Positions 16,244-62,104 of a stretch of 64,000 bases of DNA are shown one piece after another. The position numbers and the translations under genes are program-made. The number at the start of each line of letters is the position of its first letter. The first letter of the stretch is position 1. Under the pieces are notes generated by a model that saw nothing but the letters and a program-made list of their open reading frames with translations, searched no databases and was not told where the DNA came from. Source of the stretch: Bispira polyomma (Eukaryota); assembly GCA_965649765.1 (NCBI GenBank), contig OZ287756.1, forward strand, positions 7,502,001 through 7,566,000, given 5' to 3'.

Positions 16244-16316
16244 ATGGACTTTAAGCGCTGGATAATATGTCTGTGTACTTACTTGTCAAGGCACTGTGGC
16301 ATCACCGGAAGTACTG
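16244..16316 (+). CDS. Receptor exon 1 (MDFKRWIICLCTYLSRHCGITGST; signal-peptide-like)
   Basis: ATG in GAGGATGG context; strong donor G|GTGAGT; phase 1 fits exon 2. The hydrophobic core is short, so this is the least certain exon. Confidence 0.72.
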
Positions 16317-19300
16317 GTGAGTTGTTCTCTGTTCATGCTTTAGTGATGTCATGGTATGTACTTCAGATACAGATACATGTCTACTTTCAGGTTTTTTTTG
16401 GGTGTGTGTTATAAAGGTATTTCTGTATACAGATGAGTTAATAAATTGTATAATACAGAAATCAGAGTTGATAAAAACATTTTAAGATTATAAAGTGATC
16501 CCTGCCTAATATATAACATATTTTCGCAACTTTTAATCACAAGTTATATTATTTTTAAATTTGATCAAAGGAACATCTACACCATACAATATATATAACA
16601 TAACATTCCACAATAATACACATGTGTTTGTTATCAGTAACCACAAATAGTTGTCTTTTAACACAGACATCGGCACACAGTATGACTGACACCCTTCAGT
16701 TTCGCGGGGTCGATTGCTTCAAGTCAATCCATGAAGGCCTTACATATTATTTTCCAACAGGGGGCCGCGGTGGCCTAGTGGTTAGCAAACATTGCGCTTC
16801 ACAATCACTGGTCTCTCACCTCTGGGCGGCGTGAGTTCAAATCCCGTCGATGCCTATGTGGGAAAGGTGGTAGTTCCTTACTGTGGGCCGCGGGTTTCAG
16901 TGCAGAGCCTTGATCAAGTGTATGCAGTGTTTCCTCCGGCGTTTCCAACTACCTGTCCCAATATAACCTGAACAGGTACTAGAGTGGACATTAAATATCC
17001 AAATTTAAATTCAAATTATTTTCCAACATGGTGGCAATATCAGGCTATGTCTGATAATGGTCTAATAATATAAATCCAACACCTCTCAGTTTGGCATGAA
17101 CCATATATGAAGTATGATATGTCTCAATGGGACGTTAAGCTTTAAACATTGCTAAATAAACCTTAATTGTCACATTTGGGGTGATAGCTACACTTTAATA
17201 TTTGTTACATTTGTGGTTTATGGATTTACTACATTTGTGGTTATTACTTTTGTGGTTTCATAATTTGTTACATTTGTGGCTATAACCATTTTGAGATTAC
17301 TTCATTTGTTGTCGGACATTGCTACATATGTGGTTATTATTTTGTAGCAATCCTGGTGACAAACAATTAAGCAAACCTACAAACCAACAGATATGGTTAA
17401 AAAGAATATCTCCCTGGTAGAGGTATTTACTGGTTAAACCTTATACATACAACATACTTTCCACCGAATGTTGTAATAAGTCTAATGTATTTCTATTGTA
17501 GATGTTTCTCTGGCAAATGTGGAAGAAACAAGATCCTTTTGTGAAGGCAGTCTGGAGGATACAGCTCTGGTTTGTATAACCTTCTCAGTGAAGTGTGACA
17601 GCTTTGATGAAGAATGTATGAGAAAAATTAGACAAGATGCTGAATGGGAATCATGTCGTAGAAATAAGGTAAAGTGCACTATCTGCCATTGTCTTCTAGG
17701 AGGTAACAAGGAGCAATTGGTCTGGGTTTGAACTTTCTCATCCTCAGACCAACACCCTAACTACTGTGCTGTTATTTTTTTATTTCTACACTTCCAAATT
17801 CAACTCCCTCACAATATTGATCATGTCACTAATATAGAAACGTAGTCCTTAAACAAGGGATACATCCGGAGTGTAACCCTGAATAAGATGTAGTGTTGCG
17901 AGTAGTCTGCAACATATCAGTTTGAAAGGGTTTAATATACTTACACCAAAAACAACATTTGCTTGTTATAGGTTTGCCAAACACAGATCAAAGTAAAAAA
18001 GGGGGAAAAATTAGATCCATACAAGTCTGGCTGTGAAAAGGATTGTGAAAAAAAAGTTGACGATAACAACCCTGCTAGCTTTGACTGTACCGTGACAAAT
18101 GCACTGGCAAGGGGTGGGCAGGAAGAGTTGGAATGTTACCGCTGTGATCGAGGGCTTTCATTTACAGACCTCTGTAATGGTCTGTATATCAATACAAAAA
18201 GACGCTTGCTTATTTGTGGTCTCCCATAGTCTAGTGAGGAGCCTCAGTGTTGCAATGCAGCCCTTTCATAGCTGTCTTCTGGGTAGATCTGTTGATGTTA
18301 ATTATTTTCCATTTCATTGTTTATGCTATTTTGGATTTTGAATATTGTTTCATGTAGCGCCTTAGAGTTTAATATAATTAAAAATAAGCACTGACATTTA
18401 TTTTTGATATTGATAACAATAGCGATAACATGGTGGTTGATGAAACCGATCACCAATTTCCCTATCCCTGTTTCCTCCACTAGTGAACTGTTAAATGCGA
18501 AGTTAAATCTAAATTAACTATACCATGGCATAGTAGTGAGGGAGTTAATAGTAGGAGATAAAATCCTGGACGAGTGAATACATAACTAGTGATGTAGGAC
18601 CTGTTCCTTTTCTGAGAACATTAACCCTCGGAGATACATTCATCAATCTGTCCCTATATATGTTTTAAATTTGATGAAGAAATTTGAATTTTTATGTCAA
18701 ATATTTCTATATTTATTTTAAAAAAAGTATCCTTATTTTCTGCATAAAAGATAATCAGTATAGTAATAACAAATGCTTTTGTTGAGTAATGCTAGCTATT
18801 TTTAAATGTGTTTTTACTTTTGTCATCACATAACAGCTAACTTAAGCTTATTTACTATTTGTCATCACAAAACAGCTAACTTAAGCTTATTTACTATATT
18901 CTAAGATGTTTACTGATTCTCAAGTGTTTATTTATTACATGACATTTTTGTAAACATTTAGTATAAAGTGTGATTTAACTTTTTATCCAATTCTGTCTTG
19001 TTACTTTTCCTTTTAGGACAAACCAAGTTTTAGATCATGTCATTTGCATAACTTAATTTTCCCTGTAATGAGATAATTATATTATAAAAATATGACAATC
19101 AAGTTGTAATTAACCTTTGTAAATAAATGATTGATCTCGTTATAACAACATATACTCACAACATTTCACTTATGATTGTTCACTTCCCATTTTTCCCCCA
19201 AAATATAAATTTTAATACATTTTCATGAAAATTGCAGAAAATGTGCTTTGTTAAATTGTTTATTGGGAATGATGCGTCCCTTTGCCCTTTTATAAGCCAC

Positions 19301-22213
19301 TCTGGTATAAATATAAGGTTTATCTTCAGAAAAATTGGAGATGTTTTCTATTATTTTAATAGAAACATAAGGTTTTGGGCCCTAAAAATTCTTAACAAAC
19401 TGAGATTTAAATTTTTTTAGAACGGTGACCCCCTGTTTTTTCCTCATATTTAGTTACAGTATGTAATTTACCACAAGTACCTTTTTATAAAAAATTTTCT
19501 TCCCAAAACAGGCTTTTCCATTGAAATCAACATTTAAATAAATACCATATTCAAAGCTTTATAGGTTTCCAAAGAGCCTGGTAGTTTTTTGATATTTTTG
19601 TTCAGCACATTCTTCAAGCTTTTCATAATTTTTTTAAGGGGAAAATCTGTGGTGTAAAACAAATGTGATCAAACAACCTTAATCTTTGTATAACATCCGT
19701 CACCTTTTGCAATAGTTTGATAATTTATTTCATTACCAACTTCTACAGACTCCACAAGTGCAGCCACCACCTCCGAACAGTTTACAACTACACCAACAAA
19801 ACAGGGATCAACATTAACAGCCTCTTCTCCCACATCTTCAGTAAGTCCCCCAAAACACTCACCTACTGCATCTATAAAAGCGGGATCAACATCCAAAGAC
19901 CCACACGTCACAGATACTTACATCACTGCAACATCACTTATATCTGCTTCAGTGGGAACTGTTACCTCACAAACAACGGAGCCATCTACTTCAATCAGTA
20001 CATCTGCAGAAACTTCCACATACACCGGTGATGGTAGAGAGAGCAGTCTCCAATCAGGGGACATGGGTATAAACCTGAAGCTGGTAGTACCGGTTATAGG
20101 TAGGTATGATGCAGAGTGTTTCTTTCTAAAGGTCATTGCAGTTTGAAGTCCTAGTTTGTCACGGTGTTCCAATCAAAAATAAGACTTTCATACTGTATCA
20201 TAAATTGTGGATGGCATTCTGATGATCTAGACCGATCCAGCTTTTAGTAGAAAAATTTTGGACTTTGCAAAAAACTTTTGTTGATCTACAATGGCTGAAT
20301 CTTGTCCTTGATTTACCATTAAACATGGTACTACTACTGTTCAACCCCCTAAGTCCCTCATTCCTTATGCTACCACCATAAGTCCACCATCGCTACTCCC
20401 TTAATGATTGTCTCCAGGGTTAAAATTGGCCGTCAGCTGCACTGTAGAATTAATATTTCCTTTTTGCTTTCTTTTTGGGGTCATTATTGGGGCCAAATAT
20501 AGTCTAAGATATTGTGTGTCATATGTATTGGTTTGGTTTCTGGTTTCTTCTACCATTGAATCTGGTTGTTGTGATATGACATAAGTTATTGAAAATGATG
20601 TAAATCCCAACTAAACTCATATAAAATCAGGATTCATCTCATGAACAATTCAGTATGAAGGTGACTTGTGAGGTTGGTCTTGTGATCAGATGGTCCCCTC
20701 GGTTAGACTCCTACTAATGCTGCTATTAGGCTCATTGGTGGGATTAACATCCTTGGGCCAGATGTGAACACACCAAATGCCTAAGGATGGTGATTTAGGC
20801 TTTGTTGTTGTAGGACTATCCCTTGTGAGGAACGATTGCTGTAGAGGATGATATATCAATAGAGTGCTATACAAATGCTCCAATAATAATAATTGTACAG
20901 CTAAATGTAAGGTAAATGCTGTATAGAGTGGATACTTTTTCATATGTCTCTATGATTTTTCTGTTTGCAGTGACTTGTCTCCTGGTTGGTTCCATTATCT
21001 TGGCTATCCTGCTTATATACTGGAAAAGGTAACTAATATAAGTAGAGATTCATTGGAAAGAGTACACATATGGCATTACATTTCAAAATATTTTGACCTC
21101 AAGTTAATTTTTACAATGTCGTCAGCTCAAAACATTGATACACAACACTGCCAGAAACAGTGACAGTTTCACTTTGGAAACTCTGATATCAGTAATTGTG
21201 ACCCATATTTGTGTACTCATCAGTACAATTTGAAAATTAGTGACCATGTGAACAATATATTTGACCTAATTATTAAAAGTCTGCACTTTTTATATCTTCT
21301 GTATCTTATCAAGGAAATTTTGCCTGGTTCATTTGTTGTTTTCAGAATTACAAAATATATTAACAACTGATTTGCAAATTATTTAGTGGTCCTAGAGAGA
21401 ATACAATCAAATTTTAAGATAAAACCAGGTAGATTTAAAAAAAATGTATTACCTGGAAATATATGTTTAATTGTTAAATTTGGTACATTAAGAAGGTCAT
21501 ATATGCTTGTAAATTACAAAGACCCTATTAAGACTAAAAAATGTATATTAAATGTATAGCATATATTAATGTATACTTTATTTCTGAAATATAACTGGTA
21601 TATACTTTTTTAATGTCTCAAAAACAAATTTTATTGTTTATCTTTTTTAAAATTATATTTTAAATTTATTACAAATTTCTGCAGAGGCATGCACTATGTT
21701 ATTCTATTTGTCTTATATTTTTATGCTTCCAGAAAGAAAAAGAATGTGCAAACAAAAGATTCCCAAGCCCATCCATCTCCTGACCATAATGTTAACAGTC
21801 CCACCATTGCTAAAACAAGTGATCCAACTAACATCACAGAACAGTACGTAGGACTGGACCATTCCACTATGCATATTGACGGGCATCCACAATGTCAGCC
21901 ATATGAAACACTGCAGTCAGCGACATACGAGTCTTGTGAACCTGGTACAGAAAAAAATGGCTGTCGATTTGTACAGAACCCTGAATATGAAAGCTTTGAT
22001 GATGATGCAAAGGATACAAGTGATACCCTGTATTTTAGGGAAACTCAAGGCACTGAAGCAAAGAACTGCGGCAATTATGGAGAAATCACTGGAGGTACAC
22101 AGGACACTAACACAAGTGCTAACATTCCCAAAGACAATGTTCATGAGGAGGTGGAATATCTGGAGCTCTTGCAAGAAGATGATAAACTTACAACAACAAA
22201 ACATGGAACTTGA
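16244..22213 (+). CDS. Six-exon type I membrane receptor, 445 aa: signal peptide-like leader, 12-Cys three-finger(Ly6/uPAR)-like ectodomain, mucin stalk, TM, tyrosine-motif tail. Exons 16244-16316, 17502-17668, 17972-18179, 19749-20099, 20971-21028, 21733-22213
   Basis: All five introns are GT-AG with compatible phases (1,0,1,1,2). Exon lengths sum to 1338 nt (446 codons) with no internal stop. Domain order is coherent, and exon 2-4 splice sites recur in the paralogous copies. Confidence 0.88.
16760..17014 (+). mobile_element. tRNA-derived SINE in receptor intron 1, young insertion
   Basis: A box TGGCCTAGTGG (16771), B box GTTCAAATC (16835), perfect 14-bp TSD ATTATTTTCCAACA (16746-16759 and 17015-17028). 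Confidence 0.95.
17168..17345. repeat. Degenerate minisatellite (TACATTTGTGGTT-like)
   Basis: About 8 imperfect copies of ACATTTGTGGTT with variable spacing. Confidence 0.8.
17502..17668 (+). CDS. Receptor exon 2 (Cys-rich domain, Cys 1-5)
   Basis: ttctattgtag| ... AAG|gtaaag; reads DVSLANVEETRSFCEGSLEDTALVCITFSVKCDSFDEECMRKIRQDAEWESCRRNK. Confidence 0.9.
17972..18179 (+). CDS. Receptor exon 3 (Cys 6-12, SGC and DLCN motifs)
   Basis: cttgttatag| VCQTQIKVKKGEKLDPYKSGCEKDCEKKVDDNNPASFDCTVTNALARGGQEELECYRCDRGLSFTDLCN G|gtctgt. Paralogs have G|gtatgt at the same position. Confidence 0.9.
18818..18896. repeat. Tandem duplication, 2 x 39 bp
   Basis: TTTGTCATCACAWAACAGCTAACTTAAGCTTATTTACTA occurs twice. 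Confidence 0.9.
19174..19678. mobile_element. Kolobok-like MITE in receptor intron 3 (inverted copy of 9926-10490)
   Basis: Internal sequence is the reverse complement of 9926-10490 (CCCAAAACAGGCTTTTCCATTGAAA, AAACATAAGGTTTTGGG); ends AACAACC|TTAA. Confidence 0.8.
19749..20099 (+). CDS. Receptor exon 4 (Ser/Thr/Pro-rich mucin-like stalk and start of TM)
   Basis: cttctacag| DSTSAATTSEQFTTTPTK...GINLKLVVPVI G|gtaggt; 351 nt, open frame. Confidence 0.9.
20971..21028 (+). CDS. Receptor exon 5 (transmembrane helix)
   Basis: tttttctgtttgcag| VTCLLVGSIILAILLIYWKR |gtaact; followed after splicing by the basic stop-transfer KRKKK. Confidence 0.9.
21733..22213 (+). CDS. Receptor exon 6 (cytoplasmic tail with YVGL, YETL, YESC, NPEYESF, YFRE, YGEI, VEYLEL)
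   Basis: ttttatgcttccag| in phase 2; same frame as track ORF 21689-22213; TGA at 22211-22213. Confidence 0.9.
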
Positions 22214-24703
22214 GAGCTATTTTACATGGCATGTGGTATAGTACTTTTGTTGTTGTGTAAACATTTGAAGAGACTTGCTTCTGCTGGAATATGATTCCTG
22301 GATCTTGCAGATTTTGAGATTAAAGCTTGAGATTAAAGAGGAGACCCCGCAAACATTAGTGTTTAAGGCATTGATAGACACTACTATGATGTGTCTCTTC
22401 CACAAAAGCCTGTCCTCAGGTCTTATACTATTACATCAATATTCAACTTGCTTGGCTGAGAGATGGGGGGGGGGGGGGGGTAATGAGATCCCTGGATCTT
22501 GCTGGTCTTGAGATTAATAGTTGCTCACTTAACAGTTGAGCTAAAGGGGAGACCCTGAGTGTTTAATGCTTTGATATACCCTAATATTACAGTGACCACA
22601 TTTGGGTATATACAGTTAGAGTTTCCTCTAGATATTCGGCGATTGCCTTGAATCAGAGATTCTGGTTTGACATATGAAGACCATTTTTTTTACATATATA
22701 TTTATATAGTTATTTCTTTGTTCTATTGCAATACCTGGAATAGACAAATATGAATTTGAATTTAAAATTGCATGGTACAGTGGAATCTTTATTATATAAA
22801 CAATTTGCGAGAGCCAGACTATTTTCACATAAAATAATGATCATAAAATAGAATAGGCATTATATTACAAAACAAAAGGAAACATAAATGTGGGAGTTAA
22901 AAAAATCAAGTCTTCGGACAAGTTTGTATAATAGAGGTTCTACTGTACATATCTAGTTTTCAAATTGAAAGCTATGTTATACTTTTGCCTTATGTTTATC
23001 TGTGATGTATGTAACTATTTAAGCATAATATACGTTTCCTATATCAATAAAAAATTGTCTCATTGCTATAGCATCATTATCCATATAATATAAAGGAGTG
23101 TTGTCTTACTGCATGTGGTCACTTTTATATGAAGACTGATAATAACTTTTATTTAGTTTGGCTTTGACTAGTAAAGCTGAAACCTTTTCAGTAGTTTCTG
23201 ATATAGTTTAGATATTAGTTTAGTTAGTTTATCATCGCTTACAACATATGTTGTGTGATTTTACGACTTGCAGTTCACTAATGAAGAAATGACAGGGCAG
23301 TTGGTCAATGTTTTCAGCTCTAAGCAAACCATCTGCATTTACCAAGTGTACGTGCCAGGACTGAGAAATTCAAACCCATGGCAGCAGGTGGTGAAGGTGA
23401 GTGTAATATTTCTACTGCAACACTAAGGCCCCAGCTGTTGATACAAAATTAAGACCTCCTTACATGTGTTCATAGTTTTTTTTAATTCTTTTATTGGTAA
23501 AGATGTCATTTTAAAATAGAATAGGGCCTTGCTCAGTATATTCAGGCATTCAGACAGTTGAACCCTTTTGCCACCAATTAAGTGGCACTCCACAAAAAAC
23601 GAATACATTTATTTGGCAAAATGTCTCCACTTGTCCAGATAAGTTATACAGATGGAAAAGATGGAAATCAACTATTACTGGCAATAAGGTACAGTACTGG
23701 TACGGAAATACTCGTAAACAGTTAAAAACACACAACTACTGGGGAAAGATAAGATCCAGTAATGTTTTGGCAATACTCAAAAATGAGCCAAAGGATTTTT
23801 CTGCATTTTTCCGTCTCGACAAGGCAGAACTTTTGCCCCTACCCTCGAACCGCCGACAAGGTTTTGGAAGGAAGCTGAAGTTATGGGAAGTTCGAAATAG
23901 GTTTCCCCACATTACAAAGCAGTTTTCAAAACGTCTCTTACTGCCTCTACAGTTATAGTGTGAACCCCAAATAAAAGAAACTTTTATTGATTTGATACAT
24001 GATACATATTTTTTACAGTAAAATCATGTTATGTAACCAAACCTAATGAATCCTATGTATGCTAGAATTTTCTGAAAAAAAAAATGAAATTAAAGATAGA
24101 AAATATCTAGAATGGTCCCATATATAAATATGATTTCCGAATGACTACATTATAATTATGGTTGTGGCTTTGAGCTGAAAGAGTACCTAGTACAACTGTA
24201 CATTCTTGTGTTGAAATGTGGTATAAGCCATTATGTAAAAATTGAATTGTAAAAACAATGGTACAATTAGATTTGTACAGTTAACACATTGTATTATGTA
24301 ACCTGTAAAAATATATTATTATTTCGTTAATGTTAAGAAGTATAAACACAATTAAATAATAACCTTTTTCACCATAGATAGTTATCACAGTTGTGAATGT
24401 TACCAGCCATCAGTGTTATAAATGGTATATCAATCATATGTATTTTGGCACACAAGTCCTATGGGCAGGGAGTTACTGTAATAATAACAATCTTTATTCT
24501 CATGTACCTGAAACATGATACAGAAAGGTTATACCATCAAAGATGTAACTTTTTATATTTATGTTTGATAAACTATATTTAAACTAATCTTCTACAATGG
24601 ATCTATCGTTACACTGGAGTCCGGGTTCGATACCCAAATACACATTAAAATCTTTGCAAGATGACGACTAAATTTTACATAATTTTTACATTACATGTGC
24701 AGT

Positions 24704-24759
24704 TTATCGTAAGTATGGTGGTAAGTATCCTCGCCTGTCACGTGGGAGACCAGTGTTCT
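24704..24759 (+). pseudogene. Truncated tRNA-Asp(GTC)-derived sequence
   Basis: TCGTAAGTATGGTGGTAAGTATCCTCGCCTGTCACGTGGGAGACCAGTGTTC follows the eukaryotic tRNA-Asp consensus; anticodon GTC at 24737-24739; the 3' T-stem and acceptor strand are missing. Confidence 0.75.
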
Positions 24760-24990
24760 ATTAAAAGTACAATATATTTACCATTTGGTGAAAATTACCA
24801 GTTGGGTCAAGATTCAATATTAGTTTTAAATCTTAGTGTCAAGTCATGTAAACACATGACCGATTAGTCTGATACAACAGGTGCATAGTTATTATAATAT
24901 GAAGTATACCACAGTATAGTAGTCACATTTCATTGTTAATATGTCCACTGGATTAACTCATCTAATCTGAGCTTAGTTCATACAAAAAAA

Positions 24991-25670
24991 AAAGTCAGGA
25001 CTTGCATTAATCAAAACACACATTTTATTATAATTAATTAGTATTCAATCCACCAAAAAAAAGTTGGTAAAACAACAAAGTTACCATATTTTTGACAAAC
25101 TGGGCGTAGGATTTACTCATTGTTTGAAAGGCTTTTAATGTGGAGATTTAACCCCGTACACACTTGCATTAAACAGTACAGACAAAAATAGCAAAACCAC
25201 CATAAAGTATACAACACACTTATTCTCCTATAACCTAAATGTGCATCTTGTAAACAGTTTTAATAACTAGTCTCACCTTGTACAAACACAGTAACCACAT
25301 AATCCAGTCTTGTCGTGCAACATAATTAGCAAAGTCAGGACTTGCATTAATCAAAACACACATTTTATTATAATTAATTAGTATTCAATCCACCAAAAAA
25401 AAGTTGGTAAAACAACAAAGTTACCATATTTATTGACAAACTGGGCGTAGGATTTACTCATTCTTTGAAAGGCTTTAATGTGGAGATTTAACCCCGCACA
25501 CACTTGTATTAAACAGTACTGACAAAAATAGCAAAACCACCATAAAGTATACAACACACTTATTATCCTATAACCTAAATGTGCAGTCTTGTAACTAGTT
25601 TTAATGACTAGTCTCACCTTGTACAAACACAGTAACCACATAATCCAGTCTTGTCGTGCAACATAATTAG
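24991..25670. repeat. Recent tandem duplication, 2 x ~340 bp, in the GPCR pseudogene 3' flank
   Basis: AAAGTCAGGACTTGCATTAATC...CAACATAATTAGC at 24991-25330 and 25331-25670; single copy in the paralog at ~60654-61003. Confidence 0.95.
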
Positions 25671-25710
25671 CACAGTTCCTTTAACTTATGACTTTACTGA
25701 AAGTTACATG

Positions 25711-26658
25711 TTACCGGCATAATTGTGGGATATAGTTTTTGAGTTCTTTCTTGAAACATATTAATTATTATGAGTAATGTTATTGCTGGTAAGTAGAAGC
25801 AGACAAAGCAGAAGCATACAATGAACATTGTGACCAAGATATTAAGACTGCCTTTTGGAGAACCCTCCATTGGATGAGTCAGCTGAAAGTGGTGCTACTT
25901 TATGTTTATTTCTTAGTGTCAGAAAGATATTGGTGTAGACAAATAACATGAAACAAATAGGAAATAGTCATAAATAGACTAAAGGCAAAGATGATCTCGT
26001 GTAGGTCACTCCTCTAGAAGTACATGACTTTGCAAATGTCCTCTTGCATTCTGGACATACTGATCAAAAATATGCCAAAGAGGAGTGCAAACACAAAGAT
26101 GGCTAGTATCCCAATGCAGGCCAGTTTCTTATTCAAGTAGTTTTTATGCAGCACTGGCTTATCAACCATGAAGTATCTCTCTAAGGTAATCAGCAAACTG
26201 TTGTAGGTAGAGGCCATCAGGAATGTCTAATGCGGAAACTGTGACACCAAGATTCTGCAAATGATCTCGCTGTTGACAGCTAGGACATGCTGCAAGGTGC
26301 AAATGATGAGGAACAGCCCGCACAGACAATCAAACATAGACTAACTTTTGATGAAGATGTTGGTCAACTCTTGATTCATGGTTTTGCTCCTTGTCAAGAC
26401 AATCAAGACAAAGAGGATGCTAAAGGAAATGAAGAGACCAGTTGGGTAGTTGATGACAGAAATATCAATATCCCATTTTGTTCAACTTGGTAAAGGATCA
26501 TTCATTGCAGTTGTATTGCTGTCGGCAGCATTTGTAATGTTGGTAGCATCATCTGTGATAGTGACAGCCATCATCTGAGTACTCAAATACACAGTTAGGT
26601 TGATAATAGATTGAGTACATGATGACTTAGTAACTGTTGTTTGCTTTGCCATGTTCAT
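25711..26658 (-). pseudogene. Orphan class A GPCR pseudogene 1
   Basis: Colinear with 61043-62104. Stops at ~26482, ~26228 and ~26014; deletion in TM5; the TM7 NPxxY segment is deleted. LITLERYF is retained. Confidence 0.93.
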
Positions 26659-27189
26659 TTCTACTGAGCTGAACCCAATAGAATTTGCCCTTGTGATGCA
26701 AAATGCCCTTATGATGCAAAATGGAGCAATAATAACGGTGCTGGTTTTTAATTCCATGGCAGAAACAAAAAAAAAATGAGCAATGGCTGCATGGATTAAA
26801 GATATTAAGTGTTACTAATCCTAGGTCCATCAATAACCAGTATGTCAAGTAGAAGTTCATGTTTCCCACTGGTATGGAACTGGCTTCCGATAATGTCAAT
26901 TGCATCTAGGAGACTAATTATACATTAGTCTTTGTTACTTATAGAAAGGCCGGTACAATGTTCAATAGTCAACCTTTTTGTTTTCATTTTAATTCTTTTC
27001 AGCAGAAAAGAAAACATAAAGCTGGTTAATTGCATGCAATCACAAAATTATCCACATGCTGGAAATTTCTCTGCAATTAGATAATTATACTCAGTCTGAC
27101 AATTGCTTTACAAGTATGTCTACTTACAGCATATGCATTAGTAGAGGATAAAAGGTTTTATCTGACTGAGTGGGTGTGTGGGGGGCAAA

Positions 27190-27550
27190 GCAAATTTAAA
27201 GAGATAGGATATTTAAGTTTTCTCCTAAACCCAGAAAATGTTTCTAGTGATCCAAGGTAAACTAAGAGACTATTTCATAACATCGGGGCAGCCATATAGA
27301 AAGCCCTGGTTCCAGCCCTCTTAGTGGGTTTTACACAGGAATCAAAAAGTATTTTCCCTCTGTTTTGTGACGGACATTTTGTAGTTTGGAATCAAAACGA
27401 TTATCAACACAAACCTACACCAAGGTGCAAAAGGTTCTATCAATTGTAAAATGCCTATCATCTTTCTTACATTTGGGTCAACTCAATATTTGATGGATTC
27501 AACCTTGGCCTAAACCGCACCCCACCAAATTTCTTATAAATATCATAAGT
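27190..27550 (-). mobile_element. L2 LINE 3' fragment (duplicated at 45870-46240)
   Basis: Decayed L2 ORF2 C-terminal motif on the minus strand. Confidence 0.7.
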
Positions 27551-30500
27551 AGTTACCGTGTAATCCTGGTGACAAACAATTAAACCAACATAAAGAGACA
27601 AAAACAATATCCCCCAGAAGAGGTATTTACTGGTATATGCTCGTTAGACCTTTTACAAACAAATTATTTGTCACTGCATGTTGAAATAAGGCTAATCATG
27701 TGTTGTATTCCTTTATAGATGTTGCTCTGGCAGATGTGAAAAAACGGGCATTTTGTGAAGGGAATTTGTTTGACCTTCTCAGTAAAGTGTGATAATTTTG
27801 ATGACAAATGTATGATTGAAATTAAGGAGAAGAATGGAGTGTGTGTTTCAGAAGTGAGGTAAATGGTAAAGAGCACTTAGTACATCACAAATTGAGAATA
27901 ATAATTGAGAATTTAGTTTGGTATGACATCGCTTATGACAAGTTAGGTCAAATCACGACAGTCAGAATTTTTATGACGATAAAAACCTCCCACCTTTGGC
28001 GTAGTGAAAGAACAAACATGATTGAAACCCACAATGGTGAAAGGCCAGTCATTGTGAAGCAATCACATCAAACCCCTTGGGCCACAGCGGCCCCTGGAAT
28101 CACATTTGAATGAAAATGCAAAAAAAATTTGAGGTAGTATAATTTCAAATTTTTAACAGTCTAGTAAACATGCATATCGAAGTAATCATTCATGTATATA
28201 TATTTATTATATGTTTTGCCATAATTTGTTAGCCAATCAGAATCAATGACACAGGGTTATCATGTCTGAATACATCTTACACACATGACAAATGGTCAAG
28301 TTTGTTTCACTTTCTTTCAAAACTTATTAACCCTTTCGCAGCTGGTGCAACAATATTGCCCCATACTTTTACTGGGTGACAGATATCAGCACACCACTGA
28401 CTACTCCAGGAATTATATAAAACCCTTTTCTTTTATTCCTTACAAACATAGAATTCAGCAGTACTAACACACAAATGCACAGTCCTAAAATAATGCATGG
28501 TAATGGTCATAGTACCATTGTATGCTTTTATTATTAACTCTCTCACAATGTGGACTCAAAATGATTTATTAGTCATTTCAGTTATCTAGAAAAATCGTAG
28601 TCCTCAGACAAGCGGGCATTGTCAGGAATTAGAGTGAAACCTCAAATAAGTTGTGGTGTTGATTCATCAGAAATACATTAGTATGAAAGTAAATAAGAAA
28701 GAAATAAATCCTTACCAGTCAGGCTGTAAAGATGGTTGTGAAGAAGAGGTTGAGGACCACCACGTTGATGGCTTTAAATGTACAGTGGTTAATACAAGGG
28801 GTGGGCAGGAAGACTTTGAATGTTACCACTGTGGTCGAGGGCTTTTCATTTACAGACAGCTGTAATGGTATGTTTTTTATACTGTTGAAGACTGATTTAT
28901 TTGTACGTCTTCCATCACCTAATGCAGGGTCTCAGTGATGCATTGAGGGATCAACATTAACAGACATTTCTGTTACACCTTCAGCGATTCCCTCAAAAGA
29001 CACACAAACAACATCTATAAAATATAGATCTACATCCAAATATTCTTCAACCACAATTCCATCTTTTTCAACTCAAACCAAGTATCACATGTCACAGACA
29101 CCTTCATCTCAACTCCATTGTTTATATCTGCTACAGTGGGAACTCTTAGCTCACACACGTCAGAGCTATTTACTTCATTAAGTACATTTGCAGAAACTTC
29201 CACAGACACCAGTGATGGTAAAGACAACGGGATCCAATCAGGGGACACAGGTACAAACCTGAAGCTGGTGATACCAATTATAGGTTGGTGTGATCTAGAA
29301 GGTCCTTCAATCATGGTTTGAAATTATAGTTTATCACGGTATTTAAATGTTAAACAATGTAAATAACCCTTTGTGGTTGTGTCGAGTACTGCGGATAATA
29401 TAAAACCAATCCGGCTTTCATGGGAAAATCTTCGGTTTGGTTAAAACTGCTGTGGATATATTGCCATTGAATCTTGTCTGTGATTAACCATGATACCATC
29501 CGACCCCTAATTCCTCATTCTACCACCTTTTGTCCCTATAGTACCACCGTAAGTTCATCTTGACTAACCCTTGTTAACCTTCGCGAAAAGCTGTGCCTAT
29601 ATTCCATAAAAGCTGTAATTTTCCCTCATCACTTAAAACTCAATAACTCCCCCCAATGACACAGAACCATGATGATTTACTTCACCGTGGTCAAATGGGA
29701 CAGGCCTGGATTACCTTAAAAATTGACAGTCAACATTAACACTTATGATACCAAAATAAAACTATCAAAGGCAAGTGAAGGGAAATTTTTAGTAATAGCT
29801 TACAGATAGCTTGAGTCACTAAAGTATACCCCAACTGCTTTTGGCATTCAACAATGGCATTCAATAATGGACTAATTTTTTCAACAAAGAATTCTGCTGG
29901 GCTAACATTTCCTATTCGGAGAAACTGATGGAAAATTAAATTATAATTGTGTATTGTTGAATGCTTGCCAACAAACATGAGAGTCAGAATGGTTAATATT
30001 GGCCTTTGTTTTATTATCGAAGTCATTATTGAGGCAAAATATCTTGTAAGATTTTGTGTTCGTATGTATGTGTGTCCCTATATGTTATACTTACACCCAA
30101 ATACATGTTCTTTATATTAAATGTTACGTAATTGTACGTAGTTTGGTTATTGATCCCTGTTGTATATTCTACATTTACTTGCATCAAGAGGATGTTTTTG
30201 TGTGATTTTAGGCCACTGGTTTTCAGGAATTTTTAGGAATTATCTCTCTCCCCAATGTGGTTTTGAATGATTTATTTTTGTGTTCCTTTATGTGAGAAAG
30301 CATACCGTAAGTCTGTGGTTTACAGTGCTTAGTGTGCTGATTTCTTCCACCATTGAATATGACCGTCATGATATTACCTGAATTGTGGAAAATCACACGA
30401 AACCATAACTAAATTCATCCAAATTCATGATCTATATCATGAACAATTCAATACAAGAGGGTCTTTCACTAGTAAGACACTTTAGGGCACTACTTCTTTT

Positions 30501-30739
30501 GTCCTCATAGCAAACGTTATACCTCTACCTTAAATGTGTGAATTACACATAGCTATGCTTAGCAAATTTGTCTGACCATCCATAGACTGACTAATTAGAT
30601 TATTCCACCTGTAGCTTAATTCCCGCTTTTTGAGGGACCCCATATTGAATTTTCTACTGACATGGAAGCAACAGAAAATATTTTAAGCAAGCAAATAAAC
30701 ATTTTCATATAGTTTTTAGTCAACATTTTTAGTTTTTAT

Positions 30740-35200: not shown

Positions 35201-35913
35201 TAGCTGTCCCATTTTGTCACGTGTCATGGGTACACATAAGGGTAGATCTGACTCCTAGAACGGAATGACTCATCATATTTAAGGTAAGCAGTGCCCCCAA
35301 ATTTTGTGCATATATCAGTGATGTAGGTAAACAGTTCCTAGGCCTGCAATGGATGTCGTTTAAGCGGTATATAGAGGCAAATATCAGAAAGGATCTAGTC
35401 TACAAGGCAAGATGATTTATCCTGGATTTTGGTGTCTGTGTAATGTTGAAGGCTGGATGGCTGATGAAACAGTGGTAGCTCCAATCTCCACCTATTCATT
35501 CATTCACCTAGTAAAAGTGGAAAGTCAGATACACATTGGACCAAATGATACACGTAAGTATTGGCAAAGTAACATGGCCTAATCTCTCATTGGTAGACTG
35601 GTTGTGTAAACTTGCAATTGCCCAGGTTGTGGTCCTAGTTCTGCTGGTGAGACATTTGTCCCCCCATTGGCTTCTAACTGCATCCGAACAGTGCTAGTAA
35701 TGATGTCAGCAAAGACTCGGACCTTCTCCTATGACAGCAAGGCTGGTGGGGTGGAGGATTGTTCTTTGGAAGTGTCTGAACTCTGACCCGTGGTTGACAA
35801 TGCGGCTGAGGACACCGCTACAGGGTAGTGTGTTGTAAAGTGACATCGTGGACTAGACCTTGTAGCAGATTGAATTGTCATGGTTATCTGTGAAAGCAGA
35901 ATGTAGAAGAGTA

Positions 35914-36830: not shown

Positions 36831-36999
36831 GAAATGTATCACACTCAAAGGAACATATAAAACACAATATGTAGGGTAAAGACAAATTGAGGAAGGGTAC
36901 ATTAGAAAGATGAACTGGTAGAATAGTTATATGAAAATTATAAATAAATAAATGGATAGACTTCCATATAAAATAAACAATGAAAATTGTACACCTTCC

Positions 37000-44000: not shown

Positions 44001-44001
44001 A

Positions 44002-44856: not shown

Positions 44857-45356
44857 AAAAGTTATGCTGTTTATCAGCTGTTATGATCTCATGCAGTTTG
44901 CACATAGATGCACTACTTTTATTTTTCCTGTCTCGTGTTGGTATTTTTAAATCCCCTAGGGGAACAAACCCAAATTTGTCAGTGCTTTGGTCATACCATT
45001 CCCTGAAGGTGGCATTATCTACTGCTGTACGCATAAGATCCTTGTGCTTTGGCTTCACCTGTAATTGAAACTCATATTTATCCTCAGTCTTTATATTACT
45101 GTTGCCTTTTAAGTTAAGTTCACCTCGTCCCATGAGTTTAACTTTGGTTTTAGCAGTGTAAATAACCTGATTTTTTGAGTCACCCATTTGTTTTGTATTA
45201 GTCATGTTATGACCCCTATGGGGTTCCGCAGTGGGATCATTTACTATTTCTCCTTGGTTACCTATCCTTATGGTTTCTTCACATTGAAATTGTTCTAGGG
45301 GGGGGGAAACCTGTTGTGTTGGTTCTTTGAGTTACCCGTTTGTTTTGTATTAGTCA

Positions 45357-47890: not shown

Positions 47891-47894
47891 CACT

Positions 47895-50420: not shown

Positions 50421-50464
50421 GAAGTTGCATCCCCTGGTTAAGTGCTATGATGTTGATCTATTAT

Positions 50465-55717: not shown

Positions 55718-56747
55718 TTATCGGCATAATTGGGGAATATAGTTTTTGAGTTCTTTTTTAAAGCTGTCATATTTTAATGTGTATATGATTGGATTTAATC
55801 CACAGTTGACAAATATGAGGATATTTGCCACTCTGTGCAAATGCCACATAATCAGGCCGAAAGCCAAACATACCAACCACTATCAGTAATGTCGCTGGTA
55901 GCTAGCATAAGATAAAGCAGAAACATAAGATGAACATGGTGATCAAGATATTAGACTGCCTTTTGGATAGACCTCCGTTTGACATGTTAGGCGAGAACGG
56001 TGCTACTTTGCGCTTATTTCTCAGTGTCAAAAAGATCTTAGTGTAGACAAACACCATGAAAACCATAGGAAATCCCTGCACAGTCAAGAAAAAACCAAGG
56101 CCAAAGATTGTCTTAAGTAGGTCACTCTTCCAGAAGTGGAGGACTTCACAAATACCCTCTTTCATCGAGGATGTAATGATCAGAACAATGCCAAATATGA
56201 TTCCAAATGCAAAGATGGCTACTATCCCACTGTATGCGAGTTTCCTACTCAGGTAGTTCTTATGTAGCACAGGCCTGGCCACCATGAAGAACCTCTCCAA
56301 GGTAATAAGCAGAATATTGTACGTGGAGGCAATCAGGAATGTCCATAGCAGAAACTGTGACCCTAAAATTCTGCAAATTATCTCGTCAGCCACGGCTAGG
56401 TCATGTGGCAAGGTGCAAATGATGAGCAAGAGCCCACACAGGCAATCAAACATAGATTGGCTTTTGATGAAGATGTTGCTCAACTCTTGGTTCATGGTTT
56501 TGCTCCTTGACAAGACAATCAAGACAAAGAGATTGCCAAAGAAAATGAAGACACCAGTTGGGTAGTTGTATACAGTATATCCCACTGTGTTCCACTTGGT
56601 AAAGGATCAGTGTTGTTGTTGTTGGCAGTATTTGTAATAGTGGCGACATCATCAGTGACATTCATCATCTGAATACTCACATTTGTAGATTGGTTCATGG
56701 ATGACTGAGTGAATGATTCAGTAACTTGTTTTATTTGCAATCTTCAT
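55718..56747 (-). pseudogene. Orphan class A GPCR pseudogene 2
   Basis: Full length but with frameshifts near 56725, 56575 and 55833 and TAG at 55902 (CYLP position). GNLFV, SQSMFD, LERFF and NPIIY are recognisable. Confidence 0.93.
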
Positions 56748-57889: not shown

Positions 57890-58885
57890 ATCAAAACAAA
57901 TAATCATTGTCAGCATGGATTAAAGATAATAAGTGTTGCTAATCTAAGATCCACTAATTACCAGTCTGCAAAGAAGCAGTTATTGTTCTTACTAGTATGA
58001 AACTGGCCTCCCATTATACCTGTTACAATTATTTTTAGTATAAGACTAATTTTCCATTAGCTTTTGTTACTTGTAAGAAGACTTGCAGAGTGGCTGAATA
58101 TCACAATGGTTTTATTAAATGTTTAGTCTTTTTAGCAGAAAAGAAAACAGTGTACATGAAGCTATTTTTGAAGAGTAATAGTACAAATTTTTAAAGTTGC
58201 AAAAGTAATGTATTTAAATTAGTCTCATAAAACAAAGTTGCAGCTGATATTTACTGCTAACACAAACTTCAGTAACAGTTTTTTGATAACTTCATAACTA
58301 AAGGTTTAGTCTAACTGACAAAGTTAAAACCTACGCTATAACAAAATTATCTACATTTTTAATATTTCTATGCAATTATATAATTGTCCAATTATGCCTC
58401 ACTACAGTCTATGCATTAGTATATGACAAAAAGTTTGGTCTCATTGGCCAAGTTAGCAGGCAGGCAATCACAAATCACATTTGTCTCAACAATGAAAATT
58501 GCTGTGTAATTGTTCTCACTATGTACACAATTTTAGCTAATGATCTTATGTACGGTAAATTATAGTTGCCAGTGAAGATATAAAACTGTAATAATGGTTC
58601 ACCAGAAATGGCCAATGGTGCAAATTAATTCCAGGTAATTTTTTAAAAGATGTGAATTAGTGAATTTCTTGCAGTTAAAATTCCGCTAAGAATGTTTATT
58701 ATTTGAAAAACAGAATCAAAATTAAGAAATATGTTTTGTACCCTAATATAATCAACAAAGATGATGATATCCAACTTTCCATAATTTCCATGCACAATGT
58801 TATAAACACATTTTCTATGCAAACATTTTCCATTGTTAGTTGATTCAATTTTGACTAGTTTTTACTGATACACTGATATAAAGGA
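57890..58885 (-). repeat. GPCR upstream block without a coding region (paralog of 62200-63547, 26760-27150, 45357-45815, 56790-57130)
   Basis: Shared blocks CATGGATTAAAGATA, AATTACCAGTCT, TTTTAGCAGAAAAGAAAAC, ACAAAATTATC, TATGCATTAGTA, CTAGTTTTTASTGATASACTGATATAAA. Confidence 0.8.
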
Positions 58886-61042
58886 GACACTAGTAACAAT
58901 AAAACGTTGATGACAAGTTATTGTACAAATGGCAAAAACTTATAACAAAGACACTCAAGACACAACATTTAATTACACCAATAATTTTAACTAAACCGTA
59001 ACTACTCTAATTGCGCAAACTTTGATATTTTGTTGTAGATTAAACACAACTTATTTTTTTACAATAAAAGCAGAAAAAAAAAAAGAAACTAACACACAAA
59101 AAAAAAAAATTATACAGTTGTGATGCAAAAATATTTTTACATTGGTAACAATATCATATTTTGTAAATCTATTTACATTGGCATTCAAGTTATCTCTCAA
59201 GTTGAGACTGAATATTTTTTTTATTGTTAACAATGTCATTACTTTTGCAGTCTGCTGGAACATTCTGAAAATATTACTGAAATTTACACGACAAACACGA
59301 TCAAAAGGAATTTTACAATGATATAACAGATATATAAAGGATCTAGATACTTCAGATTTACTACTATTCAAGTTTTCCACATAAACTAACAACATGGTTT
59401 TCACTCTCTAAGAGACGCTTTATGAATTTATAAAATATTTTATGTAACTGAGCCTCTACAGGGATATCATCAAATATTAAAGTTACTAAAGTTAATTACT
59501 GGGAATGTGTTCGGAATTGCAAACTAATAAACTTGCGAATAGACTTTCTCCAAGTTACATAAAATTTATTGGTATCTCGACTGCTTAAGTCCCACAGGAC
59601 ATATAATGTCATACAATACCGTTTAATAATGTTATATTTTAAATTAGAGTTACAACTATTGAGGTTACTGAGAAGTACAAATTATTCTCATTACATTATT
59701 GACATTTTTACCTCCAACTTAATGTCCAATTATATGACCCAAATGATTGGCACAACAAGAGGCACAATTGACAAACCATTACAACCTTTTTTTTACATCT
59801 TGTGTGTTGACATTACCAAAAGCAAGCAGCTGGCATTTTTCGAGTAAAGTATAACTATATTCAGAACCAAATTATTTAACAATATTGAGCATCATTTTTA
59901 AACTATATACTGCAATGTCACATCATCAGCAAAGCCAAGAGCCGTTACAGAACAATTACCAATATGGCCTCTAAACCCTGAAAATTTTAATATTGTTAAC
60001 ATTTCATCAAAAAGTAAACAGAAAAAGTACAGGAAAAAGAATCCCATCCTTGCTTGACGCCATTAATAGCTGTAAACTCAGCTAAAGTTACAATACCCAT
60101 CTGATGCTTAATTTTTTAGATATATACATATTAATTAGGAATCGTGATATCAAAGGGCATAAACCTTTATTTATTTATTTTTATTTCACAAAACTTTTAT
60201 GTTGCTGTTATTTCTGAGAGTGTCTAATAATCCTTACTGTTTTCACAATTTTTTGTCTTTGTAAAACATGTTACTAATTGTGGCTTTTGTTATGTAATTT
60301 TTTCACTGAAACAAAGTTATAAATACAATTACTATTCATTAGTTTGAGAAGTATTGTTAAGAGAATGGTGATTTCTTGAATCTTGACTTTTGTCTATTTT
60401 ATTTGGTACAAAAGAACAATATATTTACCATTTGGTAAAAATTACAATCGGGCCAAGATCCATAATTAGTTTTATATCTAATAGTCAAGACATGTAAATA
60501 CACGACCTATTAGTCTGATACATCCGGTGCACAGTTAATATAATATGAAGTATACAACAGTATAGTAGTCACATTTTATATTTCATAGTAAATATATCCA
60601 CTGGACCAATTTATCCTATCTGTGCTTAGTCTAAACCAACAAAAAGTAATGAAAAGTCAGGACTTGTATTGATAAAAACACACATTTTATTATAATGAAT
60701 TCATATTCAAACCAACAAATAAGAAAGTTGGTAAAACAACAAAGTTACCATATCTATTGATTAATGAGGCTTAAAATTTACTCATCGTTTGAAAGGCTTT
60801 AATGTTGAGATTTAACCCTGTACACACTTACATTAAATGGTACAGATGAAAACAGCAAAACCACCCTAAGGTTCACAACACACTTATTTACCTATAATCT
60901 AAATGTGCACACTTAAGAACTTGCAACTAGTTTCAATGACTAGTCTTACCTTGTACACAGACAGTAACCACAAAATCCAGTTTTGTCTTGTAACATAATT
61001 AGCACAGTTCCTTTAACTTACAACTTCACTGAGAGTTTCATA

Positions 61043-62104
61043 TTATCGGCACAATTGTGGGATATAATTCCTGAGTTCTTTCTTGAAGCTCTCATATTTG
61101 AGAGTGTATATAACTGGATTCAATCCACAGTTGACAAATATGAGTATATTTGCCAATTTATGTGCAAATTCCAGATGATCCACTTGAAAACTTGATGTAC
61201 TAATCAGTATGAGCGATATTGTTGCTGGTAAATAGCAGCAGATAAAGCAGAAACATACAATAAACATTGTGACCAAGATATTCGACTGCCTTTTGGAGAG
61301 CCCTCCATTAGATGAGTTAGCTGAAAGTGGTGCTACTTTACGCTTATTTCTCAGTGTCAGAAAGATATTGGCGTAGACAAATATCATAAAACAAGTAGGA
61401 AATACTTGCACAGTCACAAACACACTAAAGGAAAAGATGGCCCTGTGTAGGTCACTCCTCCAGAAGTACATAAGTTTGCAAGTGCCCTCTTGCATTCCGG
61501 TCGTAATGATCGTAATTATGCCAAAGAAGAGCGCAAACACAAAGATGGTTAGTATCCCAATGTAGGCAATTTTCTTACTCAAGTAGTTCTTATACAGCAC
61601 TGGCTTAGCAACCATGAAGTGTCTCTCTAAGGTTATCAGCACAATGTTGTAGGTAGAGGCAATCAGGAATGTCCATTGCGGAAACTGTGACCCTAAGATT
61701 CTGCAAATGATCTTGTTGTTGACAGCTAGGCTATACGGCAAGGAGCAAATGATGAGGAACAGCCCGCAAAGACAATCAAAAATAGACTGGCTTTTGATTA
61801 AGATGTTGGTCAACTCTTGGTTCATGGTTTTGCTCCTTGACAAGACAATCAAGACAAAGAGGTTGCCAAAGAAAATGAAGAGACCAGTTGGGTAGTTGAT
61901 GACAGAAACATCAATATGCCATTTTGTTCCACTCGGTAAAGGATGATTCATTGCAGTTTTATTGCTGTCGGCAGCATTTGTAATGTTGGTGGCATCATCT
62001 GTGATAGTGACAGCCGTTATCTGAGTAGTCATATACGCAGTTAGGTTTATGGCTGATTGAATAAAAGATGACTCAGTAACTGTTGTTTGATTTGCCATTT
62101 TCAT
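61043..62104 (-). CDS. Intact orphan class A (rhodopsin-like) GPCR, 353 aa from the first ATG, single coding exon
   Basis: Seven hydrophobic segments: TM1 GN, TM2 SQSIFD, TM3 Cys and LITLERH, ECL2 Cys, TM5 FP, TM6 CYLP, TM7 NCGLNPVIY, helix 8 FKKEL. N-glycosylation sequons NQT/NLT/NIT/NKT. The track start at 62140 is GTG with an in-frame TAA further upstream. Confidence 0.96.
   Translation of the reverse strand: MKMANQTTVTESSFIQSAINLTAYMTTQITAVTITDDATNITNAADSNKTAMNHPLPSGTKWHIDVSVINYPTGLFIFFGNLFVLIVLSRSKTMNQELTNILIKSQSIFDCLCGLFLIICSLPYSLAVNNKIICRILGSQFPQWTFLIASTYNIVLITLERHFMVAKPVLYKNYLSKKIAYIGILTIFVFALFFGIITIITTGMQEGTCKLMYFWRSDLHRAIFSFSVFVTVQVFPTCFMIFVYANIFLTLRNKRKVAPLSANSSNGGLSKRQSNILVTMFIVCFCFICCYLPATISLILISTSSFQVDHLEFAHKLANILIFVNCGLNPVIYTLKYESFKKELRNYIPQLCR

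Follow-up and report, generated by a model that had tools for sequence, protein, structure and literature searches.

Layout of the locus

We analyzed a window of 64,000 nucleotides from Bispira polyomma (contig OZ287756.1, positions 7,502,001 to 7,566,000 of the forward strand) in which two unrelated gene families are interleaved. The first is a predicted single-pass membrane receptor, whose copies (R1, R2 and R3) all lie on the + strand; the second is a G-protein-coupled receptor (GPCR), whose copies (G1, G2, G3 and G4) all lie on the - strand. The features are listed below in window coordinates, except for G4.

16244..22213, +, R1, predicted intact single-pass membrane gene (open frame, GT-AG introns)
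22214..23742, +, R1 3' flank, duplicated in R2 (sequence comparison)
24083..25713, -, 3' flank of the GPCR copy G1, adjoining that of R1 tail-to-tail (sequence matches)
25714..26658, -, G1 (GPCR-psi1), pseudogene (4 premature stops)
26769..27155, -, GPCR upstream block of G1 (sequence comparison)
27156..27543, no strand, putative duplication junction (a 186-bp filler and, at 27182-27359, a dispersed repeat)
27544..41599, +, R2, copy of the receptor, broken (homology to R1)
41728..41870, -, GPCR 3'-flank remnant immediately downstream of R2 (match to 69549-69688)
42288..45331, -, presumed DIRS-type retrotransposon with reverse transcriptase, RNase H-like and tyrosine-recombinase ORFs (Pfam)
45355..47892, +, second junction copy, with R3, the filler and a GPCR upstream block that has no GPCR behind it (as given by the assembly)
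55721..56746, -, G2 (GPCR-psi2), pseudogene of an older array branch (1 premature stop)
57893..59062, -, orphan upstream block of the GPCR family, lacking both GPCR and receptor exon (sequence matches)
61043..62104, -, G3, class A GPCR of 353 aa, intact and intronless (7tm_1)
G000:C9:7572071-7573126, -, G4, intact GPCR, 352 aa (7tm_1)

The interleaved order proposed in an earlier, sequence-only reading was recovered: R1, GPCR-psi1, R2, GPCR upstream block with R3, GPCR-psi2, GPCR upstream block (57893-58357), intact GPCR. That reading also had a single intact copy of either family surviving, each at its own end of the cluster. This proved to be an edge effect, since another intact GPCR, G4 (76% identity), stands 6 kb past the window end, at 70071-71126 in continued window coordinates. 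R1 and the nearest intact GPCR inside the window are tail-to-tail, 38.8 kb apart. Over 100 kb on the left side, most ORFs of at least 120 aa have the look of transposon sequence.

Pieces of the R1 3' flank are 77-78% identical to 33055-33493, 39251-39639 and 39905-40134, and its end (23632-23742) matches 41483-41599. The G1 3' flank matches that of G4 (24083-24434 against 69021-69395; score 100, best of 30 shuffles 50) and that of G3 (24763-25755, 81-84% identity), while the remnant downstream of R2 matches 69549-69688 with a score of 98, the best of 30 shuffles reaching 47. The element at 42288-45331, which we take to be a DIRS from its ORF set, matches the Pfam models RVT_1 (E 1e-10), RVT_3 (E 4e-4) and Phage_integrase (E 8e-5).

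An assembly artefact was considered and rejected: the copies differ by 8-35%, and contigs from public runs match the stretches that they cover. These contigs, which come from a single study that is possibly the assembly's own source and hence are not independent, agree letter for letter with R1 exons 2-6 and with 27223-27900.

The intact single-pass gene

R1 has six predicted exons (16244-16316, 17502-17668, 17972-18179, 19749-20099, 20971-21028 and 21733-22213). The frame is open throughout a predicted protein of 445 aa, and all five introns are GT-AG, splicing being read from the sequence. The predicted architecture comprises a weak signal peptide, a 12-cysteine domain encoded by exons 2-3, a Ser/Thr stalk, a single transmembrane helix (hydropathy peak of 2.9 at residues 261-283) and a 161-aa tail. 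When neutral evolution was simulated at 0.09 substitutions per site, the frame was still open in only 28 of 2000 cases. The tail holds seven tyrosines, four of them in YxxI/L/V motifs, a number reached by 16 of 5000 shuffles. By the definition [ILVS]xYxx[IVL], given in the Hydractinia Alr report (PMC9546547), the tail contains one ITIM at residues 426-431, as do 600 of 5000 shuffles; a search of the tail for the ITAM pattern Yxx[IL]x(6-9)Yxx[LI] gave no match.

We predict that R1 is a kinase-free cell-surface receptor or adhesion protein, gene model and function both being predictions. Its disulfide-rich domain, carried on the Ser/Thr stalk, may bind an extracellular ligand or matrix, and the YxxI/L/V motifs of the tail may recruit SH2 or endocytic adaptors.

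The 12-cysteine domain and its relatives

The cysteines of the R1 domain are spaced 10, 6, 6, 12, 5, 18, 3, 13, 15, 2 and 9. Receptor exons were found in the same genome only at this locus and on contig C14 (5 of 7 candidates matched, and 3 of 3 in a second search), although own-genome searches score the best candidates only and may miss remote relatives beside other GPCRs. On C14 the domain occurs five times, close to chitin-binding exons.

Outside this genome, a protein-database search with R1 exon 3 returned none of 31 candidates at E <= 0.01, and a search with an exon-3 alignment none of 2592 at E <= 0.1. An exon-2 profile run against 1.84 billion representatives gave three matches, two of which, P0001 and P0003, are exon-sized relatives of the domain from another assembly; the third, a 993-aa repeat protein, was judged a chance match. 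No usable match came from an Atlas search with exon 3, nothing better than E 0.2 from PDB sequence searches, and no match for the cysteine-rich domain from a Pfam scan of single R1 exons. Exon 3 alone, which is half of the domain, folded with low confidence (mean pLDDT 49.6), and the best fold-search hit had a Z of 3.7.

The R1 ectodomain may bear some resemblance to three-finger (Ly6/uPAR/QVR) domains: it is small and disulfide-rich, with a Cys-Asn end after Cys-x2-Cys. However, it has 12 cysteines, against 10 in the QVR matches of the same genome. None of these 10 matches lies at the R1 locus or on C14, and comparison of the R1 domain with QVR (9 loci, shallow profiles) gave an HHalign probability of 0.3%, 15 of 60 shuffles being equally good.

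The GPCR array

G1 carries frameshifting gaps of 8, 1 and 107 bp in addition to its stops; G2 has several small frameshifting gaps and a dN/dS of 0.31. G3 and G4 match Pfam 7tm_1 with 100.3 bits (E 1.6e-28) and 104.6 bits (E 8e-30), for a cut-off of 30.5, and show a dN/dS of 0.38 between them. Class A receptors are marked by D/ERY, CWxP and NPxxY motifs; the counterparts here are ERH (G3) or ERY (G4) at 160, CYLP at 290 and NPVIY at 329/328. Both are orphan receptors of class A within a local array. None of 1715 database candidates reached E 1e-30, and in the Atlas these GPCRs have as neighbours, at 0.96-0.97, invertebrate 7tm_1 clusters with no name or a loose one. Several comparable arrays exist in the same genome, for example at C2:10.05-10.11 Mb, C11:48.71-48.75 Mb and C10:53.15-53.63 Mb. 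As in intronless 7tm_1 (PF00001) tandem arrays generally, G3 and G4 are single-exon genes in tandem with pseudogenes; unlike in other such arrays, an unrelated neighbour gene has been carried along in some duplications.

The 3' flanks pair G1 with G3 (p 0.145) and G2 with G4 (p 0.221), with p 0.33-0.35 between pairs. The coding tree, (((G1,G3),G4),G2) with 61% support, conflicts with this grouping, and G2 stands between R3 and G3, which makes any order of the duplication events tentative. When the two gene histories are compared, R1-R2 (p 0.178) falls near G1-G3, whereas the G2-G4 split and the deeper ones have no clear receptor counterpart beyond a faint trace near G4. The GPCR array appears to include duplications older than that of R1-R2 in which no receptor copy took part, and these older events would speak against a coupled pair.

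Broken receptor copies and the seam

R2, split by insertions, retains the end of intron 1, frameshifted exons 2-4, intron 5 and pieces of the 3' flank; exons 1, 5 and 6 were not found in it. R3 consists of exon 2-3 remnants. Exons are no better conserved between R1 and R2 than non-coding DNA (132 differences in 617 positions against 289 in 1622), with a pooled dN of 0.25 and dS of 0.30 over 201 codons.

It had been claimed that GPCR upstream blocks lie head-to-head with receptor exon 2 within about 1 kb in two units that were copied together. Both parts stand: the start of GPCR-psi1 is 1061 bp from R2 exon 2, and 26790-29970 and 45355-47892 form a genuine co-duplicated block of six collinear pieces at 81-89% identity. 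The 186-bp filler occurs only at the two junction copies (two matches from two candidates in an own-genome DNA search). Receptor homology begins inside intron 1, position 27544 corresponding to R1 17325. R1 15000-16760 scored 31 and 32 against the DNA before R2 and R3 (best shuffles 37 and 37), and R1 exon 1, sought in 23700-76000, scored 32 against 38 for the best of five shuffles. Exon 1, the promoter and the 5' part of intron 1 are therefore undetected in both R2 and R3.

The two broken copies have lesions in common: exon 2 shows the same 4-bp deletion and one shared deletion edge, exon 3 the same 6-bp deletion, and most of intron 3 is gone from both. Because these inactivating deletions are shared, the two head-to-head units would go back to one event. 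Judging from the shared frameshifts and junction DNA, the seam was most likely created once and then duplicated once.

Origin of the interleaved arrangement

We consider it very probable that the interleaving reflects ordinary tandem duplication of two unrelated tail-to-tail neighbours, the head-to-head arrangement being the seam. The sequence-only reading had allowed for simply co-duplicated neighbours, and two observations bear this out: GPCR 3'-flank homology lies within 130-340 bp of the 3' flanks of both R1 and R2, and the R1-R2 divergence (p 0.178 +- 0.010) is near that of the GPCR blocks of G1, G3 and the R3 side (p 0.12-0.21). We propose that a segment holding the receptor and the GPCR tail-to-tail was duplicated with a breakpoint within intron 1 of the single-pass gene, which would explain why the receptor copies have no exon 1. 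The seam may then have been copied once by unequal crossing-over or local duplication, and the copies eroded by deletions and transposons; the intronless GPCR array would also have duplicated by itself, without the receptor.

The same reading had also raised a co-regulated or functionally coupled pair as a possibility, which the evidence does not support. Both head-to-head units are broken on the receptor and the GPCR sides, while the intact genes are tail-to-tail. As for a bidirectional promoter, no homology to the receptor's exon 1 or promoter was seen before R2 or R3, and the DNA 5' of R1 has no homology to a GPCR upstream block. Nor does linkage of the families recur at three further loci (140 kb of C14; C9:57.38-57.41 and 66.22-66.25 Mb), none of which holds both. 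In the 140 kb of C14 a profile search found no GPCR better than E 0.96, and none of 98 own-genome GPCR matches falls on that contig; in the 30 kb surrounding either of the next two GPCR relatives, a profile search found no receptor exon.

A true ancestral head-to-head pair sharing a promoter, co-regulated without any need for binding, is an unlikely alternative. R1 would have lost its GPCR partner, and R2 and R3 would have lost exon 1 after duplication, for which the many later deletions in R2 offer a precedent. In its favor is a faint receptor-like trace about 1.2 kb upstream of G4, at 72290-72394 and 73131-73316 in continued coordinates, where R1 exon 2 and R2 exon 3 each beat all 304 real-DNA control windows and the exon-2-like and exon-3-like matches come in the right order and spacing. 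However, R2 exon 2 lacks this match (149 of 304 controls reach its score), R1 exon 3 scores best elsewhere, unrelated R1 pieces match the same spots (exon 5, reached by 0 of 304 controls; intron 5, by 3 of 304), and an exon-3 DNA profile finds nothing upstream of G4. Furthermore, five GPCR upstream blocks were compared with 8000-16243 and none matched (scores 30-47; best shuffles 39-50), and the promoter and exon-1 pieces of R1 match no GPCR upstream block. Two contrary points should be kept in view: R2 lost other exons by deletion, so that exon 1 may likewise be a post-duplication loss; and if the trace near G4 is real, the head-to-head arrangement predates R2 and could be ancestral.

That the families duplicated independently, GPCR copies being interleaved later by insertion or gene conversion, deserves hardly any credence. 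The flanks of G1 and G3 differ less (p 0.145) than R1 and R2 do (p 0.178), and the closest relative of G1 lies past G2; but that difference in p is only about two standard errors, R1 and R2 are both followed immediately by DNA of a GPCR 3' flank, and 26790-29970, with DNA of both families, was copied as a single block.

Under tandem duplication of neighbours, the two families most likely function independently. It is very doubtful that R1 is a GPCR accessory subunit or co-receptor of the RAMP or MRAP kind whose linkage is maintained by selection. One single-pass gene and the nearest intact GPCRs do survive within 55 kb, next to a left flank whose longer ORFs look mostly transposon-derived. Yet their fates are uncoupled: G1 is dead beside R1, G2 shows its dN/dS of 0.31 beside dead receptor copies, and one receptor is left for two GPCRs. 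The copies of the domain on C14 lie near chitin-binding exons with no GPCR match, and R1 has a long stalk and a tyrosine-motif tail of its own. Equally improbable is the combined proposal that R1 founds an unnamed family of 12-cysteine, kinase-free receptors with tyrosine motifs, descends from an ancestral head-to-head pairing with the GPCR family and acts as a co-expressed co-receptor; under it the domain would be shared with a chitin-binding multi-repeat protein, and the trace upstream of G4 would be real.

Comparison with known systems

RAMP and MRAP are single-pass GPCR accessory proteins; the RAMP ectodomain is disulfide-bonded and RAMP tails are very short. To our knowledge, gene linkage is not a feature of RAMP/MRAP-GPCR pairs. 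R1 shares the single-pass topology but differs from RAMP by its mucin-like stalk and the 161 aa of its tail. The Pfam RAMP and MRAP models gave no match to R1 exons 2, 3, 4 and 6 taken singly, nor to exons 2-3 at E <= 5.

In the SudRes1 region of Biomphalaria sudanica (PMC12297450), each of three receptor-type PTP genes adjoins an unrelated antistasin-like gene, so that there too unrelated neighbours are repeated together in a receptor cluster. Those receptors have MEGF as well as phosphatase domains, and their region has been linked to a phenotype (PMC12297450), whereas the duplicated receptor copies described here are dead fragments. The Hydractinia Alr proteins (PMC9546547) are single-pass with tyrosine motifs in unalignable tails and pseudogenes nearby; R1 is likewise single-pass, with tyrosine motifs and one ITIM by that paper's definition in its tail. 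The Alr proteins differ in having Ig/Fn3-like ectodomains and in forming a large family (PMC9546547), while R1 has an unnamed 12-cysteine domain, one intact copy and no ITAM.

Significance

Our literature search met no report of a co-duplicated GPCR/single-pass pair. Were the pair coupled after all, it would add a new class to the GPCR accessory proteins and offer a way into an orphan family of invertebrate GPCRs. As we read it, the locus shows cleanly how a duplication seam can mimic two genes arranged head-to-head, and how the edge of a window can mimic a single survivor per family; it is more a warning for genome scans than a piece of new biology. Its lasting value, a modest one, would be a cysteine-rich two-exon domain without a Pfam, PDB or Atlas match, found in one predicted membrane receptor and, on C14, in five copies close to exons for chitin-binding domains.

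Organization of the locus

We examined the window (C9:7502001-7566000) together with 100 kb of flank to either side, a 140-kb stretch of contig C14 and a 30-kb stretch surrounding each of the next two GPCR relatives, all within an animal genome of 1.04 Gb in 75 contigs. Self-alignment of the window bears out the element order proposed in the sequence-only reading, in which Cys-rich receptor copies (R) alternate with GPCR copies (G). Positions beyond 64000 continue the window numbering into the right flank.

16244-22213 (+): R1, intact predicted single-pass Cys-rich gene
24991-25676: recent (96.5%) 340-bp tandem duplication in the 3' flank of G1
25714-26658 (-): G1, GPCR pseudogene with four premature stops and frameshifts
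27544-41599: R2, broken receptor copy
35971-38051: satellite of 135-bp period, inside an insertion splitting the 3' flank of R2
42288-45331 (-): DIRS-type retrotransposon carrying three long ORFs, at a position expected to hold a GPCR copy
within 45355-47892: R3, broken receptor copy
47900-55300: transposon-like remnants truncating R3
~55721-56746 (-): G2, GPCR pseudogene with one premature stop and small frameshifts
61043-62104 (-): G3, intact 7tm_1 receptor
70071-71126 (-): G4, intact GPCR of 352 aa, 76% identical to G3
L005:8274-8789 (+), an additional sequence piece: exon with a weak match (E 0.003, under the cut-off) to the neurotransmitter-gated channel TM family
L007:6321-7412 (-), an additional sequence piece, further to the right: tandem ORFs that by eye look transporter-like, with no Pfam match

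The repeated block (26790-29970 versus 45355-47892) is real, with six collinear pieces at 81-89% identity. The claim of one intact copy per family fails, as G4 sits just past the window edge; the repeat map places further duplicated upstream-type blocks between G3 and G4 and past them. By eye, more decayed elements resembling the DIRS-type retrotransposon occur in both flanks, and an integrase-like stretch lies near 48200-49600; apart from one weak DUF, the pieces tested from 47900-55300 had no Pfam match at E 0.1.

Predicted products

G3 and G4 are orphan receptors that retain class A motifs and show purifying selection (dN/dS = 0.38). None of 1715 database candidates was a close relative at E 1e-30.

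R1 splices in silico into six exons, with five GT-AG introns, giving an open frame of 445 codons. The predicted protein has a weak hydrophobic stretch at its N-terminus and 12 Cys within residues 38-148. Its stalk is 46% Ser+Thr, and a single TM helix precedes the 161-aa tail, which carries 7 Tyr. R1 appears to be maintained, because its frame remained open in only 28 of 2000 neutral simulations, run without indels. Of the seven tyrosines in the tail, four fall within YxxI/L/V motifs, a number reached by 16 of 5000 shuffles. One motif satisfies the ITIM definition of PMC9546547, as does a single motif in 600/5000 shuffles; a search of the tail for an ITAM found none. R1 is predicted to be a receptor or adhesion protein lacking a kinase; it would bind a ligand or matrix on its extracellular side and adaptors on its cytoplasmic side.

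A tail-to-tail repeat unit

Homology between the receptor 3' flanks ends at 23742 for R1 and 41599 for R2, and DNA resembling the GPCR 3' flank begins 130-340 bp after each. The stretch following R1 (24083-24434) matches 69021-69395 with a score of 100 (best of 30 shuffles, 50), and that following R2 (41728-41870) matches 69549-69688 with a score of 98 (best of 30 shuffles, 47). In orientation, the repeated unit is tail-to-tail. Tandem copying of a segment that extends from R intron 1 across the R 3' end and the convergent GPCR to the GPCR upstream region would yield exactly the observed alternation, each receptor copy being born without exon 1. Alternatively, exon 1 may have been removed by deletion after duplication; R2 lacks exons 5 and 6 as well.

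Most probably, what looks like a head-to-head arrangement marks the seam of such a duplication. R2 homology to R1 begins at 27544, corresponding to R1 17325, within intron 1. The R1 promoter, exon 1 and start of intron 1 (15000-16760) score 31 and 32 against the DNA preceding R2 and R3 (best shuffles, 37); a match should be readily visible at about 18% divergence. Exon 1 has no match anywhere in 23700-76000, and none of five GPCR upstream blocks exceeds shuffle level against the 8 kb preceding R1 (scores 30-47; shuffles 39-50). A dispersed repeat and a 186-bp filler separate GPCR-upstream from R homology, the filler's two genome-wide matches being the two junction copies.

In exon 2, R2 and R3 have a 4-bp deletion and one deletion edge in common; in exon 3 they share a 6-bp deletion, and most of intron 3 is missing from both. 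They evidently derive from a single, already broken copy, so the two head-to-head units of the sequence-only reading represent one event.

One observation counts against this reading: a faint R-like trace upstream of G4, which, if real, would make the head-to-head layout older and perhaps ancestral. R1 exon 2 matches 72290-72394, about 1.2 kb upstream of G4 (score 46), and R2 exon 3 matches 73131-73316 (score 40), both scores exceeding those of all 304 control windows of real DNA; the matches are collinear, with the order and spacing of R exons 2 and 3, and an exon-2 DNA profile also outscores all controls. However, the R2 exon 2 score was reached by 149/304 controls, the exon-3 profile found nothing there, and among 21 x 12 comparisons unrelated R1 pieces match the same spots (exon 5, 0/304 controls; intron 5, 3/304).

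Divergence

R1 and R2 differ at 289/1622 non-coding and 132/617 exon positions (pooled dN 0.25, dS 0.30), and R2 and R3 at a proportion (p) of 0.08-0.15. For GPCR 3' flanks, p is 0.145 for G1-G3, 0.221 for G2-G4 and 0.33-0.35 between the two pairs; among the upstream blocks of G1, R3 and G3, compared over 105 bp, p is 0.12-0.21. The coding tree, with two distant outgroups, is (((G1,G3)100,G4)61,G2). One GPCR split thus appears similar in age to the R1-R2 split, in keeping with co-duplication, while for the older GPCR splits there is no clear counterpart among the R copies.

Linkage of the two families elsewhere

In genome searches, which score only the best candidates so that counts are lower bounds, R1 exons 2 and 3 matched only the present locus and C14:10.84-10.85 Mb (5/7 and 3/3 candidates), and the tail and TM exons matched R1 alone. 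Two C14 exons used as queries returned only C14, plus R1 exon 3 for one of them. None of 98 genome matches to the GPCRs fell on C14, where the best GPCR profile hit over 140 kb had E 0.96, and the 30 kb surrounding each of the next two GPCR relatives (at C9:57.39 Mb and C9:66.23 Mb, 38-40% identity) contained no R exon. The proposed linkage is thus absent from these loci. The two relatives (C9:57394706-57395720 and 66234961-66235974) share 87% DNA identity, 9 Mb apart on opposite strands.

On C14 (10815000-10850000), the two-exon Cys-rich domain occurs in five tandem copies, all on the minus strand and joined by Pro/Thr/Glu linkers; five Cys and one Trp of the first exon are invariant. These copies are followed, on that strand, by two CBM_14 chitin-binding exons (E 6e-7, 5e-7) and a long acidic repeat, accompanied by further Cys-rich exons. 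The domains, CBM_14 exons and acidic repeat may form one gene, likely encoding one large predicted extracellular matrix or peritrophin-like protein. Scanned singly, the domain exons matched nothing in Pfam, PDB or Atlas. Exon-sized relatives of both exon-2 subtypes (P0001, P0003) come from another public assembly; the domain therefore occurs outside this genome. It may resemble three-finger domains; a comparison of shallow profiles with this genome's QVR matches gave an HHalign probability of 0.3% (15 of 60 shuffles as good), and a low-confidence model of exon 3 had a best fold match of Z 3.7. A separate young tandem array at C4:31883000-31929000 comprises nine or more QVR-like three-finger genes, nearly identical and intronless, with a signal peptide and hydrophobic C-terminus.

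Probably co-duplicated neighbours rather than a coupled pair

Intronless GPCR tandem arrays are common in this genome, so a neighbour copied along is unsurprising. The closest kinds of locus are arrays of this type that undergo birth-and-death turnover, and receptor clusters in which genes of unrelated families recur side by side, as in the RPTP/antistasin-like blocks of PMC12297450. The parts of the literature returned by our search held no report of a comparable GPCR/single-pass pair.

Of the two readings first offered, simply co-duplicated neighbours is supported by the GPCR 3'-flank DNA after R1 and R2 and by the similar split age. The coupled receptor/co-receptor pair finds no support and is very improbable. 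The two families have had uncoupled fates: G1, the neighbour of R1, is dead, neither partner survives in either head-to-head unit, and R1 and G3 lie tail-to-tail at a distance of 38.8 kb.
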